Shown here: in pieces, positions 2,010 to 29,019 of the stretch
Position numbering within the stretch: position 1 is the first letter of the stretch
Layout: every line of letters starts with the position of its first letter
Notes under the pieces: model-generated
Databases searched by the model: none
Told to the model about the DNA's origin: nothing
Seen by the model: only the letters and a program-made list of their open reading frames with translations
Sequence record: OZ035850
Strand: one strand, 5' to 3'
Length of the DNA: 64,000 nt
Source of the DNA: Escherichia phage vB_Eco_TB37
Position numbers and translations under genes: made by a program

Positions 2010-2501
2010 ATGTTTGTAGATGATGTAACACGAGCGTTTGAATCTGGTGATTTTGCTCGACCTAACTTATTCCAAGTAGAAATTTCTTATCTTGGACAAA
2101 ATTTTACGTTTCAATGTAAAGCCACTGCTTTACCAGCTGGTATTGTAGAAAAAATTCCAGTCGGATTTATGAACCGTAAAATTAACGTAGCAGGTGATCG
2201 TACATTCGATGACTGGACTGTTACAGTAATGAACGATGAGGCACATGATGCTCGCCAGAAGTTCGTTGATTGGCAAAGCATTGCTGCTGGTCAAGGAAAC
2301 GAAATTACTGGTGGAAAACCTGCAGAGTATAAAAAGAGCGCTATCGTTCGTCAATATGCTCGTGACGCTAAAACAGTAACAAAAGAAATTGAAATTAAAG
2401 GTCTGTGGCCTACTAACGTGGGTGAACTTCAATTAGATTGGGATTCAAACAATGAAATCCAAACCTTTGAAGTAACTCTTGCTCTCGATTATTGGGAATA
2501 A
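2010..2501 (+). CDS. 19: Tail tube protein gp19
   Basis: 163 aa, ATG start, two TATAAATA late promoter motifs upstream, synteny after gp18. Confidence 0.93.
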   Translation: MFVDDVTRAFESGDFARPNLFQVEISYLGQNFTFQCKATALPAGIVEKIPVGFMNRKINVAGDRTFDDWTVTVMNDEAHDARQKFVDWQSIAAGQGNEITGGKPAEYKKSAIVRQYARDAKTVTKEIEIKGLWPTNVGELQLDWDSNNEIQTFEVTLALDYWE

Positions 2502-2533
2502 AATGAATGGGGAGAAATCCCCATCCTGCTTAA

Positions 2534-4158
<1,625 letters not shown>

Positions 4159-4159
<1 letters not shown>

Positions 4160-4407
4160 TGGAAGGTTTAATTGAAGCTATTAAATCAAACGACCTCGTA
4201 GCCGCTCGTAAATTATTTGCTGAAGCCATGGCTGCAAGAACGATTGATTTAATTAAAGAAGAAAAAATCGCTATCGCTCGTAATTTCTTAATCGAAGGTG
4301 AAGAACCTGATGACGAGGATGATGACGAAGACGAAGATAGTGATGATAAAGACGACAAAAAAGACAAAGACTCTGATGAAGATGACGAAGACGAGGATGA
4401 TGAATAA
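4159..4407 (+). CDS. 67: Prohead core protein gp67 with acidic Asp/Glu-rich C-terminus
   Basis: 82 aa, TAATG overlap with gp20 stop, acidic tail, synteny. Confidence 0.85.
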
Positions 4408-4832
4408 TGCTTCTGATCCCTGAAACTCATGAATTAGTTCTCGAGAATGTCGAAGCACTTATTCCTGAAGCACAGGGTCGCTTTGACGAATTGTCTTCTG
4501 CTTTAAATAAAGACGATATAAATACAATTGTCGAGAATATGCTTGATGATGAAACTGATTTAGCGGTTGCATTAGCTTCTATTAATGAAAATATGCCGCT
4601 AAATGAATTTATCGTTAAACATGTTTCCGCCCGTGGTGAAATTACACGTACTAAAGACCGCAAGACGCGTGAACGTAATGCATTTCAAACCACTGGGCTG
4701 TCTAAAGCAAAACGTAGACAAATTGCTCGTAAAGCTACCAAAACGAAGATTGCCAATCCAGCAGGTCAATCTCGTGCTCAGCGTAAGCGTAAAAAAGCTC
4801 TTAAACGCCGTAAAGCATTAGGATTAAGCTAA
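4407..4832 (+). CDS. 68: Prohead core protein gp68
   Basis: 141 aa, TAATG-coupled to gp67, basic C-terminus, synteny. Confidence 0.85.
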
Positions 4833-5470
4833 TGAATGAACCCCAATTACTAATTGAAACTTGGGGTCAACCTGGCGAAATTATTGATGGCGTGCCAATG
4901 CTTGAATCTCATGATGGAAAAGACCTAGGTTTAAAACCTGGTTTATACATCGAAGGAATATTCATGCAAGCGGAAGTCGTCAATAGAAATAAACGTCTTT
5001 ATCCAAAACGCATATTAGAAAAAGCGGTAAAAGACTATATCAATGAGCAAGTTTTAACTAAACAAGCTCTCGGAGAATTAAATCATCCTCCACGCGCTAA
5101 TGTTGACCCGATGCAAGCCGCTATCATTATAGAAGATATGTGGTGGAAAGGAAATGACGTATACGGACGAGCTCGTGTTATTGAAGGTGACCATGGTCCT
5201 GGAGATAAATTAGCAGCTAATATTCGTGCCGGATGGATTCCAGGAGTTTCTTCTCGTGGATTAGGTTCATTGACTGACACAAATAAAGGTTATCGTATCG
5301 TAAACGAAGGATTCAAATTAACTGTAGGTGTTGATGCAGTATGGGGTCCAAGTGCTCCAGATGCATGGGTAACTCCTAAGGAAATTACCGAATCACAGAC
5401 GGCGGAAGCCGATACAAGTGCCGATGACGCCTATATGGCTCTCGCAGAGGCCATGAAAAAAGCGTTATAA
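4832..5470 (+). CDS. 21: Prohead core protease gp21
   Basis: 212 aa, TAATG-coupled to gp68, synteny in head module. Confidence 0.9.
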   Translation: MNEPQLLIETWGQPGEIIDGVPMLESHDGKDLGLKPGLYIEGIFMQAEVVNRNKRLYPKRILEKAVKDYINEQVLTKQALGELNHPPRANVDPMQAAIIIEDMWWKGNDVYGRARVIEGDHGPGDKLAANIRAGWIPGVSSRGLGSLTDTNKGYRIVNEGFKLTVGVDAVWGPSAPDAWVTPKEITESQTAEADTSADDAYMALAEAMKKAL

Positions 5471-5473
5471 ATA
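5466..5473 (+). promoter_or_regulatory. Late promoter motif upstream of gene 22
   Basis: Exact TATAAATA overlapping gene 21 stop. Confidence 0.65.
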
Positions 5474-5500
5474 TTATTATCTAAACAACAGGACTACAAA

Positions 5501-6310
5501 ATGCTTAAAGAACAACTGATTGCCGAAGCGCAGAAAATTGATGCTTCCGTTGCTCTTGATAGTATTTTCGAATCAGTTAATATTTCTCCGGAAGCAAAAG
5601 AAACTTTCGGCACTGTATTCGAAGCTACCGTCAAGCAGCACGCCGTTAAATTAGCTGAATCTCATATCGCTAAAATTGCTGAAAAAGCAGAAGAAGAAGT
5701 AGAAAAAAATAAAGAAGAAGCCGAAGAAAAAGCTGAGAAGAAAATCGCTGAGCAAGCTTCTAAATTCATTGACCATCTTGCGAAAGAATGGCTCGCTGAA
5801 AATAAATTAGCAGTTGATAAAGGCATCAAAGCCGAACTGTTTGAATCCATGCTTGGTGGATTAAAAGAGCTCTTTGTTGAACACAACGTTGTTGTTCCAG
5901 AAGAATCGGTTGATGTTGTAGCTGAAATGGAAGAAGAGCTGCAAGAACATAAAGAAGAATCAGCTCGTCTGTTCGAAGAACTCAATAAGCGTGACGCATA
6001 TATCAATTATGTGCAGCGTGAAGTGGCATTGAGCGAAAGTACTAAAGATCTGACTGAGTCTCAAAAAGAAAAAGTCTCTGCTCTGGTCGAAGGTATGGAT
6101 TATTCAGATGCATTCTCAAGTAAATTGAGTGCAATCGTAGAAATGGTGAAGAAATCTAATAAAGATGAAAGCACTATTACTGAGAGTATAAATACTCCTG
6201 ATACTGAAGCAGCCGGACTGAATTTCGTCACTGAAGCTGTAGAAGATAAAGCTGCACAGGGTGCAGAAGATATTGTAAGTGTATATGCGAAAGTCGCATC
6301 TCGTTTCTAA
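5501..6310 (+). CDS. 22: Prohead core scaffold protein gp22
   Basis: 269 aa, highly charged coiled-coil-like protein, TATAAATA upstream, synteny. Confidence 0.9.
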   Translation: MLKEQLIAEAQKIDASVALDSIFESVNISPEAKETFGTVFEATVKQHAVKLAESHIAKIAEKAEEEVEKNKEEAEEKAEKKIAEQASKFIDHLAKEWLAENKLAVDKGIKAELFESMLGGLKELFVEHNVVVPEESVDVVAEMEEELQEHKEESARLFEELNKRDAYINYVQREVALSESTKDLTESQKEKVSALVEGMDYSDAFSSKLSAIVEMVKKSNKDESTITESINTPDTEAAGLNFVTEAVEDKAAQGAEDIVSVYAKVASRF

Positions 6311-6328
6311 TTTTAAAGGTTAACACAA

Positions 6329-7894
6329 ATGACTATCAAAACTAAAGCTGAACTTTTGAACAAATGGAAGCCATTACTGGAAGGTGAAGGTTTACCGGAA
6401 ATTGCTAATAGCAAACAAGCGATTATCGCTAAAATCTTTGAAAACCAGGAAAAAGATTTCCAGACAGCTCCAGAATATAAAGACGAAAAAATTGCTCAGG
6501 CATTTGGTTCTTTCTTAACAGAAGCTGAAATCGGTGGTGACCACGGTTACAATGCTACCAACATCGCTGCAGGTCAGACTTCTGGCGCAGTAACTCAGAT
6601 TGGCCCAGCTGTTATGGGTATGGTACGTCGTGCTATTCCTAACCTGATTGCTTTCGATATTTGTGGTGTTCAGCCGATGAACAGCCCAACCGGTCAGGTA
6701 TTCGCACTCCGCGCGGTATATGGTAAAGATCCGATCGCTGCCGGTGCTAAAGAAGCATTCCACCCAATGTATGGTCCAGATGCAATGTTCTCTGGTCAGG
6801 GTGCTGCTAAGAAATTCCCAGCTCTGGCTGCTAGCACAGAAACCACAGTAGGTGATATCTATACTCACTTCTTCCAGGACACTGGTACTGTGTATCTGCA
6901 AGCTTCTGCTCAAGTAACAATTAGTGCAAGCGCAACTGATGCAGATAAATTAGATGCTGAAATTAAGAAACAAATGGAAGCTGGTGCACTGGTAGAAATC
7001 GCTGAAGGTATGGCTACTTCTATCGCTGAACTCCAGGAAGGTTTCAACGGTTCTACCGATAACCCATGGAATGAAATGGGCTTCCGTATCGATAAACAAG
7101 TTATCGAAGCTAAATCTCGCCAGCTGAAAGCTGCTTACTCTATCGAATTAGCACAAGACCTCCGCGCTGTTCACGGTATGGATGCTGACGCTGAACTGTC
7201 TGGTATTCTGGCTACAGAAATTATGCTGGAAATCAACCGTGAAGTTGTTGATTGGATTAACTACTCCGCACAGGTTGGTAAATCTGGTATGACCCTGACT
7301 CCGGGTTCTAAAGCTGGTGTATTTGACTTCCAGGATCCGATTGATATTCGTGGTGCTCGCTGGGCGGGTGAATCCTTTAAAGCTCTGTTGTTCCAGATTG
7401 ACAAAGAAGCAGTTGAAATTGCTCGTCAAACCGGTCGCGGCGAAGGTAACTTCATTATCGCTTCTCGTAACGTAGTTAACGTACTGGCTTCTGTTGATAC
7501 TGGCATTTCTTATGCTGCTCAAGGTTTGGCAACCGGTTTTAATACTGATACTACTAAGTCAGTATTTGCAGGTGTTCTGGGTGGTAAATACCGTGTATAT
7601 ATCGACCAGTATGCTAAACAGGATTATTTCACTGTAGGTTATAAAGGTCCGAACGAAATGGATGCTGGTATTTACTATGCTCCATATGTAGCTCTGACTC
7701 CGCTGCGTGGTTCCGATCCGAAGAACTTCCAACCAGTAATGGGATTCAAAACTCGTTACGGTATCGGTATCAACCCATTTGCAGAATCCGCTGCTCAGGC
7801 TCCGGCTTCTCGCATTCAGAGTGGTATGCCTTCTATCCTGAACAGCCTTGGTAAGAACGCTTACTTCCGCCGTGTATATGTTAAAGGTATCTAA
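6329..7894 (+). CDS. 23: Major capsid protein gp23
   Basis: 521 aa, high-expression codon usage, followed by hairpin terminator, synteny. Confidence 0.95.
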   Translation: MTIKTKAELLNKWKPLLEGEGLPEIANSKQAIIAKIFENQEKDFQTAPEYKDEKIAQAFGSFLTEAEIGGDHGYNATNIAAGQTSGAVTQIGPAVMGMVRRAIPNLIAFDICGVQPMNSPTGQVFALRAVYGKDPIAAGAKEAFHPMYGPDAMFSGQGAAKKFPALAASTETTVGDIYTHFFQDTGTVYLQASAQVTISASATDADKLDAEIKKQMEAGALVEIAEGMATSIAELQEGFNGSTDNPWNEMGFRIDKQVIEAKSRQLKAAYSIELAQDLRAVHGMDADAELSGILATEIMLEINREVVDWINYSAQVGKSGMTLTPGSKAGVFDFQDPIDIRGARWAGESFKALLFQIDKEAVEIARQTGRGEGNFIIASRNVVNVLASVDTGISYAAQGLATGFNTDTTKSVFAGVLGGKYRVYIDQYAKQDYFTVGYKGPNEMDAGIYYAPYVALTPLRGSDPKNFQPVMGFKTRYGIGINPFAESAAQAPASRIQSGMPSILNSLGKNAYFRRVYVKGI

Positions 7895-22784: not shown

Positions 22785-22788
22785 CAAT

Positions 22789-22818
22789 GGGGACCGAAAG
22801 GTCCCCATATTTTTATTT
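22789..22818. terminator. Hairpin terminator after gene 54, shared with convergent minus-strand ORF
   Basis: GGGGACC-GAAA-GGTCCCC then T-tract. Confidence 0.7.
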
Positions 22819-23103
22819 ACGGAATGAAATGAAAGCAGAAACTGAAGCAACTAAACTGTCTTCAATATAAACTTCAATTTTTACCGGAGCTTCTGACTCG
22901 AATTTACCTGTTACTACACCTTGGAAAATACTTTCAGTTTGTTCTGGCTTTGAAAAATTTTCAGAAGGAAAAATTCCGAACTTTTTATCTGTTCCAAAAA
23001 TTTTGATAAATTCATCATAAACTGCTTCATTAAAAGCATTATCAGCAGGAATAACGCCTTCAACTACAAGTTCTTGACCTAAAAAGCGCAAAGAAGATTT
23101 CAT
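22813..23103 (-). CDS. Hypothetical early protein, 96 aa
   Basis: ATG with GAGGA RBS directly downstream of an early-type promoter. Confidence 0.65.
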   Translation of the reverse strand: MKSSLRFLGQELVVEGVIPADNAFNEAVYDEFIKIFGTDKKFGIFPSENFSKPEQTESIFQGVVTGKFESEAPVKIEVYIEDSLVASVSAFISFRK

Positions 23104-23134
23104 TTTGTGTTCCTCATGTTATGTCAGTAAGACT

Positions 23135-23164
23135 ACTATAACACAACACGAGGGACTTGTAAAC
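23135..23164 (-). promoter_or_regulatory. Early sigma70-type promoter (-35 GTTTAC, 18-bp spacer, -10 TATAGT) for the 96-aa ORF
   Basis: Hexamers read on minus strand; part of a 53-bp repeat shared with the alc promoter. Confidence 0.65.
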
Positions 23165-25221
23165 TACATCTTGAACTTTTTAGACATTCCGTTGATGTTA
23201 ACCAAAGAAGCCAAGATTTGAGAAACTTCGTTTTCCTCTTCTTTTGATTCTTCTACAAGGAATTGATTAAATCCAGCCATTGGACGAACTTCACCAGTTT
23301 CCATTAAATGGTCGCCATCATATACTGATTCTTCTAATTGTTCAGAAGGAGGAACGATTGTACCTTCGATTAGATACTTGTTATAAGCAGTTTCTTTCAT
23401 AAAGTACGTACTTACTTTATTAATCTTCAGTAAAATTCCACGCGGTAGAATAACTTCAGCTTCTGATGGAAATCCTGATAAATGACCTGGAACGATAACT
23501 TTGATTCGCTCAGCTCCTTTAATTACCATACCCACGCTAGTTTCAGCATCTTCAATGGCATATGTAGAATGACTACCCATATGCATTAAATCTTCTGCAT
23601 CAACGGAACCTTCTCCTTCGCCAGAAAATACTGCGCCGGAATCATCTAGAGCCATATAGTTTTTACCATGCTCACCGAAGATATTTGGTTTAAGTGATGT
23701 CGATACGAAGTTCTTGAAATAGAACATTTTGTTTTCAATGTTATGACGCAAAGTTTTAAAGGTAACTTCTTGTCCACGGTAAAGTGTAGTTCCTGGAGGA
23801 AGAACTGATCCTTTGGCAAAGGCAGAATCCAACGTCTCGATGTGCTTAATAGCTCGTTCCATATATTCTTCACGGGTAGAATCTGGTTTACCCAAAAGGA
23901 ACGAGTTCATTTCAACATATGAATCTGCACAATAATCTTCAATTACATCAGATTCAGCTTGGGTTAATCCTTTTGGAGTTACTTCGGTGCTTGCGTATTC
24001 ATATGCCTGGGCAGCAGATTCATTAATCAATTTATAAATGCCATTCATGACAAATTGAATAATAGCTGTCTTTTCATCTGGCGTAGCTTTAGAACCTTTA
24101 ACTAAATCATTAATAATTTTCTTAATAACATCAAAGCTATTAGAAATATTAATGTCAGCAAGATCGCTTAAAATTTTATCAGTTTTATAATCAAAGAATT
24201 CTTTATTCTTTAAATATTCTTGAGAACCTTGATATGTTATATCGCTCTGCAACTTGATAGATGGATCACGTAAACGTGCATGGGCTAATGCAATATGATT
24301 TCGGAAGTTTTCTAGTTCATAATCGTTAGATTTAAAACGAGAAGCACTTCTCATACCACCGATAGCTCCTTTGCTAAAGTTTGAACCAATCTGGATAACC
24401 CCGGAGTTCATCGGACCTTCTGCTTTATATACCGGAACTTTAGATTCAAACTCTTGATATTTCTTGGCAGCGAAGCTATCACCCTGGAGTGAAGCATCAA
24501 CAGTAGAATATTGAGCTTGTGCTGCTAATCGACGACTAATTTTAGTTTTCTGAATAACAGCTTGATCCGTGCGCTTATCATTTTCTAAAGCAATAGAAGC
24601 AGCAACAGCAACAGCTTTAGGAACAGCATTACCTGTTTTAACGTCTACATAAACATCACCAACCTTTGATTCAACTTTTGTGAATAACTCAGTTGAAATA
24701 GGAGGTACACCTGGAATGTCTTCTAAATTGGCATTTTTACGGTAAACCATAATATATGCATATTTCTTATCATAGTCCCAGATTTCCTTTAAGAGAACAT
24801 ATCGACCTGCTCCTTTAGTACGTACTAAACGGTCAGCAATAACTTGCATTTGACGAGCTGCGCCATTTGTTTTACTCTTTAGTACGCGGAATAGGCATGC
24901 GTCGATTTTATACTGTTTCATTGTTTGAAGAGCAGTATCAAAAACAGCATTAATGACGCCAATTGGATTTCCACCCAAGTTTCTAAGCTTAACCAGCGAT
25001 AATTTCTCGTTGACACCTATCATTACGATATGCATCATTTTATCGCCCGGCTTAACGTTTTTATTTGTATCACCGCCAGAGGTGTATGTACAAAATCTAA
25101 ATCCAGGAAGCACGCTTTCTTCACCGGCTTGAATAGCAAAAATTTGAGGTATTTTATGCTTAGGATTTAAGTTAACAACCGGCGCCGAAGCGCCGTCAAA
25201 TAATTCTGTAATAAGTTCCAT
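23164..25221 (-). CDS. Alt-like ADP-ribosyltransferase paralog, 685 aa
   Basis: N-terminus MELITELFD and C-terminal R-S-E motifs (YRGQ, FVSTSL, EAEVILPRG) shared with adjacent alt; AAGGA RBS, 3 nt after alt stop. Confidence 0.8.
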   Translation of the reverse strand: MELITELFDGASAPVVNLNPKHKIPQIFAIQAGEESVLPGFRFCTYTSGGDTNKNVKPGDKMMHIVMIGVNEKLSLVKLRNLGGNPIGVINAVFDTALQTMKQYKIDACLFRVLKSKTNGAARQMQVIADRLVRTKGAGRYVLLKEIWDYDKKYAYIMVYRKNANLEDIPGVPPISTELFTKVESKVGDVYVDVKTGNAVPKAVAVAASIALENDKRTDQAVIQKTKISRRLAAQAQYSTVDASLQGDSFAAKKYQEFESKVPVYKAEGPMNSGVIQIGSNFSKGAIGGMRSASRFKSNDYELENFRNHIALAHARLRDPSIKLQSDITYQGSQEYLKNKEFFDYKTDKILSDLADINISNSFDVIKKIINDLVKGSKATPDEKTAIIQFVMNGIYKLINESAAQAYEYASTEVTPKGLTQAESDVIEDYCADSYVEMNSFLLGKPDSTREEYMERAIKHIETLDSAFAKGSVLPPGTTLYRGQEVTFKTLRHNIENKMFYFKNFVSTSLKPNIFGEHGKNYMALDDSGAVFSGEGEGSVDAEDLMHMGSHSTYAIEDAETSVGMVIKGAERIKVIVPGHLSGFPSEAEVILPRGILLKINKVSTYFMKETAYNKYLIEGTIVPPSEQLEESVYDGDHLMETGEVRPMAGFNQFLVEESKEEENEVSQILASLVNINGMSKKFKM

Positions 25222-25224
25222 GAT

Positions 25225-27321
25225 TTATCCTTGAACGAACTTGTAAGGCATGTTTGTAATATCTATGCAAGACGCAATAATTCCAAGAGATGATTCTACT
25301 TTCTGTTTAATATTTGATGAAACAAATGATGCAAAGTCAACTCTGTCTTCTATTTCAATATCACCTGTCATTGCAACTACTTCGCCGGTTTCCATTAAAC
25401 GGTCTCCGTCATAGATTACCGATTCGGTGAGTTCTTCCGTGGTCATAACTTCAGCTTGAATGAGTTTTGTATTATTAGATGTTGTTCCGTCATTATTAGA
25501 AGCATCGGTTATTTTATTAACTTTGACCATCAATCCGCGCGGTAGAATAACTTCAGCTTCTGTTGCTATTCCGAGACTTCCTGGATATACAACATTAACT
25601 TTATGAGCTCCATCAATTGCCCATCCTATTTGAACTTTAACGTATTCAGGATTTTCTTTATACGCTCTTATTTCGTTTGGATTAATAGTTATTCCTTCTT
25701 CATTTTTATCAACTGTTAATTCATTACGAGCTTCTGGTTCTAAAAGACCAATACCAGCATGTGTAATTCCAAAACGTCCAAAAATGATAGGAGTTAAAGA
25801 AGTAGATACAAAATTTCTGAAATAGAACACTTTATTTTTAACTAGTGCTTCGTATATAGGAGCAGTCATACTTTGAGCACGATAAACTGTAATGCCTTCC
25901 GGTATGCGGTCACCATTTTCAAAAGCTGAATCTAAATTATTTATAGCAGATTCAATTTCTTTTTCACTCATTACATCATATCGTTCTGGATTGTAACGAC
26001 CTAAAAGAAGATTATTAATGTCTGTATATCCTGAACCGCAATATTCTCTAATGCCACGCTTTTGTGATGGAGTATATTTAGAACCATCACGGGCAATAGT
26101 AATATCAATCATTGGACCAGCACCAATTCCAGAAAAGCTATAAATCATTCGTTTGAGGAATTTAGTTTTTGCTGCATTCCAGGCATTTTTAGTTATTTCT
26201 CCCCAGACTTCATCTGGCTGCCCTTTACGAGTTTTATTATGTTTATCAAGCCAATTATCTTTATATTCTTCAAAGAGTTGATTAACAGCTGCTGCGTATT
26301 TCTCTAAACATTTTATTGAAGTAGTTGGTTCATTTTTAATCGCATTAAGAATTACATCTTTAATTTTTTCAGAAACTTCATTAACCTCACTTTTTGAAAA
26401 GAATTTATAGTCATAATGAAGTTCATTCGCAGTTCCTTCGGCAATAATTTTTGCTGCCTTAGTTTTAGAAGCTAATGAATTAATTCCAAGCTTCATTTCT
26501 TCTGCTTCGGGAATTAAAGGAGCGGTAGCAGGTTTATTGAAATTAGCTGCGGTAGATTCATACTTCTGGAATAATTCACTTTCAAATCTAGAAGATTCCA
26601 ATGATTGACTTTGCGCAATTGCTCTACGGGAAATTTTAACTTTAACGATTACAGCTTGGTCAGAACGTTTATCATTTTCTTGTGCAATAGATGCTGCAAT
26701 TGCCTCATTTTTAGTTACTTGAGCTCCAGTATCTTTATTGATATAAACATCGCCGACTTTCGATTCAACTTTAGTAAAGAGCTCGGTACTAATTTCCGGA
26801 ACTCCTGGAATGTCTTCTAGTGATACATTTTTGCGATGTATAAGAATATATGCATACTTTTTATCATAATCCCAGAGTTCCTTAAGAAGGACGTATCTGC
26901 CACCTGAACGACTACGGATAAGTCTATCAGCAATAACTTGAATTTGTCGAGCTTGACCAGCGGTTTTAGACTTAAGAATACGAAGCATACAAGCATCAAT
27001 TTTATACTGACGCATTGTTTGCATTGCAACAGTAAAAACTGAATTGATATAATTAATTGGGCTTGGACCGAGACCTTTTAATTTAGCAATTGAACCTTTG
27101 GCAGTTAATGTAAAAGGAACAATATGCATCATTTTATCGCCCATCTTTAAATCGCGATTAGTATCACCTCCAGATGTATAGGTACATAAACGAAATCCTG
27201 GTTGTTCAATTGCATCATCAACGTGAACTGAAAAAATTTGTGGTATTTTCTTCTTTGGATTTAAGTTTGTAATCGGAAGAGTAGTATCTTCGTCAAATAA
27301 TTCTGTAATGAGTTCCATCAT
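25225..27321 (-). CDS. alt: Alt ADP-ribosyltransferase (head-packaged), 697-698 aa
   Basis: N-terminal MELITELFDEDTTLP, ART catalytic motifs YRAQ / FVSTSL / EAEVILPRG, position next to gene 30, late promoter motif upstream. Confidence 0.88.
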   Translation of the reverse strand: MMELITELFDEDTTLPITNLNPKKKIPQIFSVHVDDAIEQPGFRLCTYTSGGDTNRDLKMGDKMMHIVPFTLTAKGSIAKLKGLGPSPINYINSVFTVAMQTMRQYKIDACMLRILKSKTAGQARQIQVIADRLIRSRSGGRYVLLKELWDYDKKYAYILIHRKNVSLEDIPGVPEISTELFTKVESKVGDVYINKDTGAQVTKNEAIAASIAQENDKRSDQAVIVKVKISRRAIAQSQSLESSRFESELFQKYESTAANFNKPATAPLIPEAEEMKLGINSLASKTKAAKIIAEGTANELHYDYKFFSKSEVNEVSEKIKDVILNAIKNEPTTSIKCLEKYAAAVNQLFEEYKDNWLDKHNKTRKGQPDEVWGEITKNAWNAAKTKFLKRMIYSFSGIGAGPMIDITIARDGSKYTPSQKRGIREYCGSGYTDINNLLLGRYNPERYDVMSEKEIESAINNLDSAFENGDRIPEGITVYRAQSMTAPIYEALVKNKVFYFRNFVSTSLTPIIFGRFGITHAGIGLLEPEARNELTVDKNEEGITINPNEIRAYKENPEYVKVQIGWAIDGAHKVNVVYPGSLGIATEAEVILPRGLMVKVNKITDASNNDGTTSNNTKLIQAEVMTTEELTESVIYDGDRLMETGEVVAMTGDIEIEDRVDFASFVSSNIKQKVESSLGIIASCIDITNMPYKFVQG

Positions 27322-27341
27322 ATCCTCTCTAGTGTTTATTC

Positions 27342-27349
27342 TATTTATA
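27342..27349 (-). promoter_or_regulatory. Late promoter motif (minus strand) upstream of alt
   Basis: Plus-strand TATTTATA about 20 nt upstream of alt ATG. Confidence 0.6.
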
Positions 27350-27370
27350 AAATTAAAGGCCCGAAGGCCT

Positions 27371-27559
27371 TTAATAATCTATTGGTAAGAGAGTACGATA
27401 TATTTCAAACTTTGGACCTTTTTCATAAGCATCAAAAGTTTCTGTGAATTTATTATAAGCATATGCATCTATAAATTCAATCATGATTTGTGATACAGAA
27501 GTAGAAACATCTCCACCTTCTTTTTGAGCCACGACAATTGTTTCTAAGTAAGCTTTCAT
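27371..27559 (-). CDS. Hypothetical protein, 62 aa
   Basis: ATG overlapping ligase stop (ATGA), followed by hairpin. Confidence 0.55.
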   Translation of the reverse strand: MKAYLETIVVAQKEGGDVSTSVSQIMIEFIDAYAYNKFTETFDAYEKGPKFEIYRTLLPIDY

Positions 27560-29019
27560 AGACCAGTTACCTCATGAAAATCACCAAATACATCTTCGAA
27601 TGTATTAGCTTTAGTTTTATCTTCACGTAAACGAATCGCAATCGGAAGAAATAATTTAACGTAATCAGTGCGGCCATCAGATTTTAACCAACCGTTGCAT
27701 TCGCACTCTAGAATTTTTCCAATATAATAATTTTGATTTTCCATAATGCGAGTACGGTCAAGTTCATGTGATTTTACGCCGGCTTTATCTTTTAAGCCTG
27801 AACCCGCATTTACCTTAATTTTTCCACACTCTGACTCAAGAATAAATCCACCTGCTTTAGTAGGGTCTTTACGGTGAGGATAAATTCCTACAATTTTTAA
27901 ATCAACATCAATTACTTCTTTAAATTTATAGAGATTTTTTGAACGAGCATTTTCCCATAATCCATCGATATTTTTGAGAATAATACCTTCAAGACCTTGG
28001 TCAATATACTTTTTATAAATTACCTTAGCTTCATCTAGGTTATTTACTACTTGGTTTTCAATTAAAATTACTTTATCATAGCCTGATGTCATTTGTTCTA
28101 GTTTAGAAAAACGTACATCATATTTCAAACGAAATGCTGGAAGACCGTATATTTCTACCAACGGAACATAATCCCAGACCTGAAACTTCATGCATTGTGC
28201 TTCTTTTTCTGAAATAGTTCCCTTTAAAGATTTATTAGCGATTCCATTAGAAGTAGTACGTGATTCAGCTACTTCAGCAAACTCTTTAGCTTTACTAATT
28301 TCAGGATAAGCATCAAAAAGAAAATCTAGGCCTTCTGGCTCCTTTTTAACTTGCTCATGGTATACCAATTCGCCATCAATTAACACACCTTCTGGATGAA
28401 TCTGGCGGGCTTCAGCGGTCATTTTGATTAACTCTTCCTTAAGAAGATCTAATCCTAGATATTCATTACCAGCTCGTGATAAAAGACGGACATCATCTAA
28501 TTCATCACCTCTAACTTCAGCAAAACACCGAGCTCCATCTGCTTTTAATTGTGCAAAGGCTGGAAATTTGATATTCTTACTAATGCCTTTTTCATCATAA
28601 GAACTTGCGAGCATTTGAGGTTGTTCAGGAATTAAACCTGGCCAAACTTTGTTTGCAATAGATACTGAAGCACCACATTCAAGGTCTCGCATCATCACTC
28701 GACGCAAAACTTCAACATCATCTTTTTTACCGTCAGTAATATAACCTACTAATTCCTCAATTGCCGCATTTCCAGTCAATTTCCGAGTAGCTAATGTAAA
28801 TTCAATGAAGTCAAGCATATCGGTAAGAGTCAACATTCCAAAACTCTGGGTAGCAATACCAGGTTTAGGCCATTTCTTGATATAATACTGCAACCCACGA
28901 GAATAAGTCAGACGATATACTCGTTTAAGCAATTCATTATCTTTATTCTTTTCAAGAATTGCTTGCTTCTGCTTAGTTGAACCAATAGATGCTATTTCGT
29001 TCAGAATTTTAAGAATCAT
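27556..29019 (-). CDS. 30: ATP-dependent DNA ligase gp30
   Basis: 487 aa, adenylation lysine motif (KADGAR), T4 ligase N-terminus MILKILNEIASIGSTKQKQ. Confidence 0.93.
   Translation of the reverse strand: MILKILNEIASIGSTKQKQAILEKNKDNELLKRVYRLTYSRGLQYYIKKWPKPGIATQSFGMLTLTDMLDFIEFTLATRKLTGNAAIEELVGYITDGKKDDVEVLRRVMMRDLECGASVSIANKVWPGLIPEQPQMLASSYDEKGISKNIKFPAFAQLKADGARCFAEVRGDELDDVRLLSRAGNEYLGLDLLKEELIKMTAEARQIHPEGVLIDGELVYHEQVKKEPEGLDFLFDAYPEISKAKEFAEVAESRTTSNGIANKSLKGTISEKEAQCMKFQVWDYVPLVEIYGLPAFRLKYDVRFSKLEQMTSGYDKVILIENQVVNNLDEAKVIYKKYIDQGLEGIILKNIDGLWENARSKNLYKFKEVIDVDLKIVGIYPHRKDPTKAGGFILESECGKIKVNAGSGLKDKAGVKSHELDRTRIMENQNYYIGKILECECNGWLKSDGRTDYVKLFLPIAIRLREDKTKANTFEDVFGDFHEVTGL

Follow-up and report, generated by a model that had tools for sequence, protein, structure and literature searches.

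The second alt gene of Escherichia phage vB_Eco_TB37: an intact form of a known Tequatrovirus Alt paralogue

The Alt protein of phage T4 is a head-core protein that is present in about 40 copies and is ejected into the host (PMC9026906); the gp21 protease cuts it after ITE-6 and LTE-619 (PMC5694885). Paralogous duplications of alt were described in T4, RB49 and 44RR in a comparison of five T4-like genomes (Nolan et al., 2006; PMC1524935). In phage RB32 (DQ904452) a second gene of this kind is termed alt.-2 and carries the record note "apparent insertion in alt.-2; similar to alt"; in T2, RB27, Sf22 and others its RefSeq name is Alt-like RNA polymerase ADP-ribosyltransferase. The present analysis concerns two alt genes found in tandem on the minus strand of a 64,000-nucleotide (nt) stretch of Escherichia phage vB_Eco_TB37 (sequence record OZ035850), which as a whole is termed the window. 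The second of these, copy 2, represents, in intact form, the second of the Alt paralogues known from Tequatrovirus, and at the level of the gene the finding is already known. The two genes and the ribosome-binding site (RBS) between them are as follows.

25225..27318, minus strand: alt copy 1, 697 aa with the annotated ATG as start, 698 aa with an upstream ATG (27321)
23164..25221, minus strand: alt copy 2 (alt.-2-type gene), 685 aa, intact
25228..25232, minus strand: RBS of copy 2, AAGGA, within the last codons of copy 1 and 6 nt before the ATG

The two adjacent minus-strand open reading frames (ORFs) described in the original prediction, which was made from the letters of the window, are present, with a small correction to the start of the first. 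The copy 1 ORF opens with ATGATG. In the RB32, T6 and T4 records the gene starts at the second of these ATG codons (27318), which is better spaced from GAGG than the first and gives 697 aa. The gap of 3 nt and the separate AAGGA claimed for copy 2 are both read in the sequence. The junction of the copy 1 stop and the copy 2 start is TAA-ATC-ATG, and the junction sequence TTCGTTCAAGGATAAATCATG is unchanged across eight genomes (the window, RB32, WL-3, EH2, YwIITB1, T6, BF15 and T4).

The gene pair is widespread. A megablast search with 22800..27600 found 338 phage records that cover at least 80% of this region, T2, RB32, RB27, RB33 and Sf22 among them, and many of these are annotated with two Alt-like ADP-ribosyltransferases. 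The 685-aa protein is found at an identity of at least 95% in 396 records (194 at 99% or above, 202 at 95-99%), and the window protein is 100% identical to one of phage vB_EcoM_R5505. The 685-aa ORF had been put forward as a possible novelty, with the reservation that it might prove to be an alt.-2-type gene already known from T-even phages. Since it is annotated as alt.-2 in RB32, and is known also from T2 and T6, this is what it is.

The statement that T4 has a single alt at this place was incomplete as well. T4 has alt together with alt.-1 and alt.-2, which are the decayed 5′ end of the copy 2 gene; the T4 record states that they "reflect an old duplication of the first part of gene alt". 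Together they correspond to the first 358 nt of the copy 2 gene (aa 1-117), with a near-identical sequence and the same upstream junction and RBS. The T4 remnant is broken by the loss of one A in a run of A residues, i.e., a 1-nt frameshift, and then by a 1,699-bp deletion, both ends of which are in an imperfect direct repeat (CTAAAGAGT / CTAAAAAGT). A 93-nt probe of the deletion junction matches as a single continuous piece in 91 records, compared with about 401 that have the intact centre; within Tequatrovirus the tandem pair is thus the usual condition, and T4 represents the minority.

Selection on the two genes was estimated as dN/dS, the ratio of non-synonymous to synonymous substitution rates, from seven diverged genomes with intact frames (dS about 0.12-0.18). 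The values are 0.047 for copy 1 and 0.051 for copy 2 over the whole gene, 0.005 and 0.016 in the N-domain, and 0.089 and 0.073 in the centre. Pairwise differences in copy 2 among the seven genomes comprise 1,496 synonymous and 312 non-synonymous changes. Both copies are under strong purifying selection by this measure, and copy 2 is a maintained and probably working gene. That it might be a pseudogene, or in decay, is ruled out by the dN/dS of 0.05 and the intact frames in these seven genomes.

The two proteins share their ends and differ in their centres. The parts compared are listed here.

24517..25221, minus strand: copy 2 N-terminal module, aa 1-235, including the MELITE propeptide (with ITE at 4-6) and, by prediction, an alpha/beta domain
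23977..24516, minus strand: copy 2 central region, aa 236-415, predicted to be all-helical, with no detectable similarity to the copy 1 centre
26074..26610, minus strand: copy 1 central helical region, aa ~237-415, of which there are several distinct alleles

The pairwise alignment proposed in the original prediction confirms paralogy, shared ends and dissimilar centres, with 41% identity over the full length (BLASTP, E = 1e-157). Segment by segment, the identity of the two copies amounts to 68% over the N-domain (1-235), 14% over the centre (240-415), 33% over the ADP-ribosyltransferase (ART) domain (416-625) and 46% over the tail (626-685). The hhalign probability is 100% for the N-domains and likewise for the ART domains, and the N-terminus stated to be shared is borne out over 235 residues. 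Between the two centres, hhalign detected no similarity (probability 0.3%, E = 0.22). The middle sections, described as unrelated and swapped, are so at the level of sequence, but their limits are about 236-415 and not 235-440; similarity of the copies returns at a Y-x(4)-Y-x-x-(I/M)-N helix near residue 426-430. The structural side of the description is less secure, as both centres are predicted to be all-helical with parallel helix patterns, so that a common fold is possible.

The AlphaFold2 model of copy 2 has a mean predicted local distance difference test score (pLDDT) of 74.5 and displays five regions.

Residues 1-11: disordered
Residues ~12-225: alpha/beta N-domain
Residues ~250-414: all-helical centre
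Residues ~421-622: ART domain
Residues 629-685: disordered tail

Within the copy 2 centre, means of pLDDT over 10-residue blocks are 73-90. In the model of copy 1 (pLDDT 74.6) the centre is likewise all-helical, with predicted helices at 248-408 whose positions closely match those of the copy 2 helices. The copy 2 centre matches that of the JS98 group with an hhalign probability of 97.8%. It is nearly uniform among phages, as tblastn found 401 records at 90% identity or above and 44 at about 47%, and a search with either centre gave a single matching place per genome. A phmmer search of the copy 2 centre against 1.8e9 representative proteins matched only a repeat protein; the search also missed the Alt2/JS98-type clusters, so its outcome carries little weight. 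The repeat protein matched (P0121) is unannotated and has 1,147 aa, and its repeats share the motif G-x-x-x-A/S-x-RF-x-x-x-DY-x-L-x-NF with GGMRSASRFKSNDYELENF, aa 280-306 of copy 2 (~24304..24384). This match of about 25 residues is too short to interpret.

Both proteins carry the residues that define the catalytic site. In copy 1 these are R480 (VYR-A-Q), S-T-S at 505-507, and E587 and E589 (EAEVILPRG); those of copy 2 are listed with their domain.

23338..23976, minus strand: copy 2 ART domain, aa 416-628, with a variable insert at about aa 515-562
23776..23778, minus strand: copy 2 catalytic Arg, R482, in LYR-G-Q
23695..23703, minus strand: copy 2 S507-T-S509
23455..23463, minus strand: copy 2 E587-A-E589, in EAEVILPRG

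The R-S-E motifs are intact in both copies, and the doubt first raised about their conservation is answered by the catalytic R, the first S and both E residues, which are invariant across 121 aligned homologues. The ExE motif is typical of arginine-specific ADP-ribosyltransferases. Copy 2 has the complete R-S-ExE set and a predicted C3/VIP2/Vis-like ART fold; the insert between the S-T-S and ExE motifs differs between the two copies. The second Glu of the ExE motif corresponds to E577 of T4 Alt, counted from the upstream ATG, and the T4 mutant E577A is inactive by experiment (PMC11404850).

The profile hidden Markov model and BLAST comparisons, also proposed at the outset, place both proteins in the Alt family. 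PF03496 (ADPrib_exo_Tox, ADP-ribosyltransferase exoenzyme) scores 129.2 bits for copy 1 and 71.8 bits for copy 2, with a cut-off of 23.4, and PHROG 802, "Alt-like RNA polymerase ADP-ribosyltransferase", matches both over the full length (copy 2, 1-685, E = 7e-256). A precomputed annotation gives a whole-protein match to PF26846 (Tevenvirinae_ADPRT), and homologues are matched by PF26846 together with PF03496; we infer that the PF26846 match belongs to the N-terminal part. A sequence search of the PDB gave no match to copy 2, and NCBIfam has no family for either Alt, alt.-3 or alt.1.

Sites that resemble those cut in T4 Alt are found at both ends of copy 2. The ITE at residues 4-6 is aligned with ITE-6 of T4 Alt and has predicted disorder (1-11) beside it. 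The second site is near the C-terminal end.

23329..23337, minus strand: copy 2 LEE, aa 629-631, aligned with LTE-619 of T4 Alt, fits L-x-E; predicted C-terminal processing site

Predicted disorder in the copy 2 model begins exactly at residue 629. The N-terminal module is presumed to be the part that targets the protein to the head core. Judged from its sequence, copy 2 most likely travels in the head, enters the host by injection and is active there, possibly with other targets than copy 1; the original proposal of a different host target is a reasonable hypothesis.

Signals for transcription of the pair are the following.

27342..27349, minus strand: late promoter motif of T4 type, TATAAATA, 21-24 nt upstream of the copy 1 start codons
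27355..27372, minus strand: GC-rich hairpin AAAGGCC-TTCG-GGCCTTT, then AATTTTAT, at the end of alt.1, read from the sequence
22787..22808, both strands: bidirectional terminator-like hairpin between alt.-3 and gene 54, from a terminator scan

The promoter motif is at the same position in all ten related genomes checked, T4 among them. With its conservation, the 3-nt spacing, the conserved RBS and the lack of any terminator-like site between copy 1 and copy 2 in the terminator scan, the earlier proposal that both copies are made from a shared late promoter is probably correct. The hairpin at 27355..27372, immediately ahead of the alt late promoter, is probably an intrinsic terminator; T4 has the identical sequence, and a simple terminator scan left it unlisted. 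Transcription of the alt unit likely ends at the hairpin at 22787..22808.

A further TATAAATA at 25938..25945 (minus strand), inside copy 1 and about 717 nt before copy 2 begins, is seen in RB32-type alleles. As an internal late promoter for copy 2 it was rejected as incidental, being absent in BF15 and YwIITB1. In T4 (L001 9504..9532) a 5-nt sequence is duplicated in tandem (AATAGAATAG) after the late promoter and before the RBS; this duplication is missing from the window (27318..27341) and from the other nine genomes.

The gene pair lies between DNA ligase/alt.1 upstream and, downstream, a 96-aa ORF (alt.-3; 22813..23103, minus strand) followed by the baseplate genes 54 and 48. The order ligase, alt.1, alt, second alt, alt.-3 and gene 54 is common to the window, RB32, T2 and T6. 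The stretch that separates alt.-3 from the stop of copy 2 (23104..23163, minus strand) contains a stable RNA hairpin (-23 kcal/mol, z = -4.3) in which GAGG, the Shine-Dalgarno sequence of alt.-3, is paired with bases upstream of it; the sequence of this hairpin is conserved in T4. A T4-early-like promoter at 23163..23135 (TTTACA, 17 nt, TG-extended TATAGT) overlaps the 5′ arm of this hairpin. The RBS of alt.-3 would be free on early transcripts begun inside the hairpin and masked on late read-through transcripts. Mutants of T4 Alt.-3 with a C-terminal extension evade the CmdTAC defence by blocking CmdA degradation (PMC11618068).

Copy 1, an RB32/T2-type allele orthologous to T4 alt, is a mosaic when set against T4 Alt. 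Its residues 1-245 are 99.6% identical to T4 Alt, its centre about 30%, its ART domain about 65-70% and its last ~110 aa more than 90%, so that the ends are 93-100% identical. At the nucleotide level (T4, L001 7455..9503) identity is 94-100% in alt.1 and the first ~750 nt, abruptly 45-62%, then 92-100% at the 3′ end, with a sharp left breakpoint near codon 250. Because identity drops abruptly, and because dS relative to the T4-type allele is 1.04 in the centre vs 0.16 in the N-domain, the divergent stretch of copy 1 appears to be an old cassette gained by recombination, not a product of fast local evolution. By tblastn the copy 1 centre is found at 95% or above in 201 records, at 90-95% in 103, at 60-80% in 38 and below 60% in 437, the T4-type centre (29%) being in the last class; there are at least four identity classes.

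Dhakavirus QL01 (L008 864..7124) has three tandem alt paralogues of 694, 681 and 707 aa in the same slot. In the first of these, the ART domain matches that of window copy 1 at 95% identity (82-93% at the nucleotide level) and the N-domain at only 46%. Flanking genes of QL01 and the window show a background of about 60-66% identity; the ART identity is far above this, and the effector domain has therefore moved between genera. The third QL01 copy corresponds to copy 2, with 44% identity in the centre and 56% in the ART domain. These correspondences suggest that alt was probably duplicated before the two genera separated, with later exchange possible.

Hybrids of the two copies are also found. 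Four metagenomic proteins, P0003-P0006, begin as copy 1 and continue as copy 2, with the change at about residues 60, 100, 180 and 215. A hybrid alt of 686 aa, with the copy-1 N-terminus and the copy-2 body, is the only alt gene in ECML-134, SCS4 and PST, where it lies between alt.1 and alt.-3. Coordinates of hybrid alt genes are these.

2501..4561: ECML-134 (L010)
2501..4561: Yersinia phage PST (L011)
5001..7061: L003

The exact matches between copy 1 and copy 2 are only 25, 21, 19 and 16 nt, some of them near crossover points. That P0003-P0006 are chimeras of short-read assembly is ruled out, as no exact match exceeds 25 nt and the isolated phages ECML-134, SCS4 and PST carry hybrids. The single hybrid genes imply, from their structure, unequal recombination between tandem copies. 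From the natural hybrids it follows that the N-module is interchangeable and that a copy-2 body can be the sole Alt effector. The alt locus appears to hold between one and three injected ART effectors in an array, each made up of a lineage-specific N-module and an exchangeable body.

Taken as a whole, these data are best explained by copy 2 being an intact second Alt paralogue that is co-transcribed, packaged, trimmed, injected and active, with partly different targets, and we consider this explanation likely. Copy 2 would be transcribed late together with copy 1 from 27342..27349 and translated from its own AAGGA. It would enter the prohead core by way of the shared N-terminal module, and the gp21 protease would trim it after ITE-6 and LEE-631, with removal of residues 632-685, to a mature protein of about 625 aa. 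Injected with the DNA, it would mono-ADP-ribosylate arginines of host proteins, using NAD+ (nicotinamide adenine dinucleotide). As its helical centre and ART-domain insert are unrelated to those of copy 1, its target set probably differs in part from that of copy 1. Several points weigh against this explanation. A proteomic or biochemical study of the second copy, covering translation, packaging, cleavage or activity, was not found in the searchable literature. The C-terminal site of copy 2 is LEE and not LTE; TATAAATA has 18 matches in the window vs nine expected, so that the motif alone is weak in AT-rich DNA; and copy 2 is dispensable, being absent as such from T4 and 90 other records. The similar helix patterns of the two centres might reflect a shared fold and role, the models being moderately confident (pLDDT ~74) and built from a shallow, mixed alignment of 17 sequences.

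It is also conceivable, but unlikely, that copy 2 is packaged and active on the same targets as copy 1 (Arg265 of RNA polymerase alpha and other Alt substrates), and serves for dose or as a back-up. The catalytic motifs, the arginine-type ExE signature and the overall layout are alike in both copies, the predicted helix patterns of the centres are parallel, and there are phages with only a copy-1 body (T4) or only a copy-2 body (ECML-134, PST), so either suffices. However, mere redundancy fits poorly with two copies kept under strong purifying selection in about 400 genomes, or with centres that are undetectably related and ART domains that are 33% identical with a different insert. Each copy also has its own counterpart in Dhakavirus QL01, which suggests long-term upkeep of two distinct functions.

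Much less probable is that copy 2 is not a virion protein, but one made late that acts only in the producing cell, or a structural part of the core for which enzymatic activity does not matter. The literature treats Alt both as an enzyme and as a protein of the core (PMC11404850), and proteomic evidence for packaging of copy 2 was not found in the searchable literature. Yet the N-terminal module is the most constrained part of copy 2 (dN/dS 0.016) and, as natural hybrids show, can be exchanged for the module of copy 1, the ITE-6 and L-x-E motifs are kept beside disordered ends, and the invariant catalytic residues argue against a purely structural role. Decay of copy 2 as a duplicate heading for loss has a precedent in the frameshift and deletion of T4 and the 90 other records, but this idea is effectively refuted, and we assign it almost no likelihood: the 685-codon frame is intact in seven of seven diverged genomes with a dN/dS of 0.05, and copy 2 is at least 90% identical in about 401 records.

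As a discovery, copy 2 carries little weight, since a second alt has been in public annotation since the RB32 deposit (DQ904452). Alt is known almost wholly from work on T4, a phage in the minority state; the majority of its T-even relatives are likely to inject two distinct ADP-ribosyltransferases, and Dhakaviruses are likely to inject three. The constrained N-module, the dissimilar centres, the exchange of ART domains between genera and the hybrids with a copy-2 body only offer handles for domain swaps and target mapping. A broader proposal, offered tentatively, sees the alt locus of Tevenvirinae as an array, reshuffled by recombination, of one to three ARTs that are injected from the head and whose bodies recognise different host proteins, possibly defence components, with copy 2 having its own target set. 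If so, loss of copy 2 in T4 would contribute to differences between T4 and T2/T6, e.g., in sensitivity to host defence, and Alt would be a phage counterpart of polymorphic toxin systems. The modular array is a tidy extension of what is known and not a surprise, and the function of the second enzyme is a modest question.

Of known systems, the closest are alt.-2 of RB32 and the second Alt of T2, T6, RB27, RB33, Sf22, teqdroes and others, which are 95-100% identical in protein sequence to copy 2. The RB32/T2/T6-type second Alt has the same length of 685 aa and lies in the same slot between alt and alt.-3, with no meaningful difference from that of the window. T4 Alt (gpAlt, NP_049811), a head-packaged, injected mono-ADP-ribosyltransferase that acts on RNA polymerase alpha and other host proteins, is the orthologue of copy 1. 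MazF is another target of Alt. T4 Alt has in common with copy 2 the N-terminal module (67% identity), the R-S-ExE ART domain and the locus, and copy 2 has motifs that match both of its gp21 sites, but the copy 2 centre (236-415) is without detectable similarity to it and the ART domains are about 36% identical. The T4 genes alt.-1 and alt.-2 represent a broken form (1-nt and 1,699-bp deletions) of the gene that is intact in the window.

More distantly, C3-like, VIP2 and iota-like toxins (Vis, C3bot, CDTa, iota Ia, VIP2, Certhrax) and ModA and ModB of T4 display the same ART fold and the same R, S-T-S and ExE residues as the Alt copies. The Alt proteins, unlike the C3/VIP2 toxins, have an N-terminal extension of about 400 residues formed by the packaging module and the helical centre; the toxins are secreted, whereas Alt proteins are delivered from the phage head. 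ModA and ModB differ from Alt in being small and expressed after infection. The logic of polymorphic toxins and polyvalent effectors (Iyer et al., 2017; PMC5512222) likewise combines a conserved delivery module with a variable effector, but in the alt array all bodies belong to one enzyme class, the R-S-E ART, and not to different toxin families.

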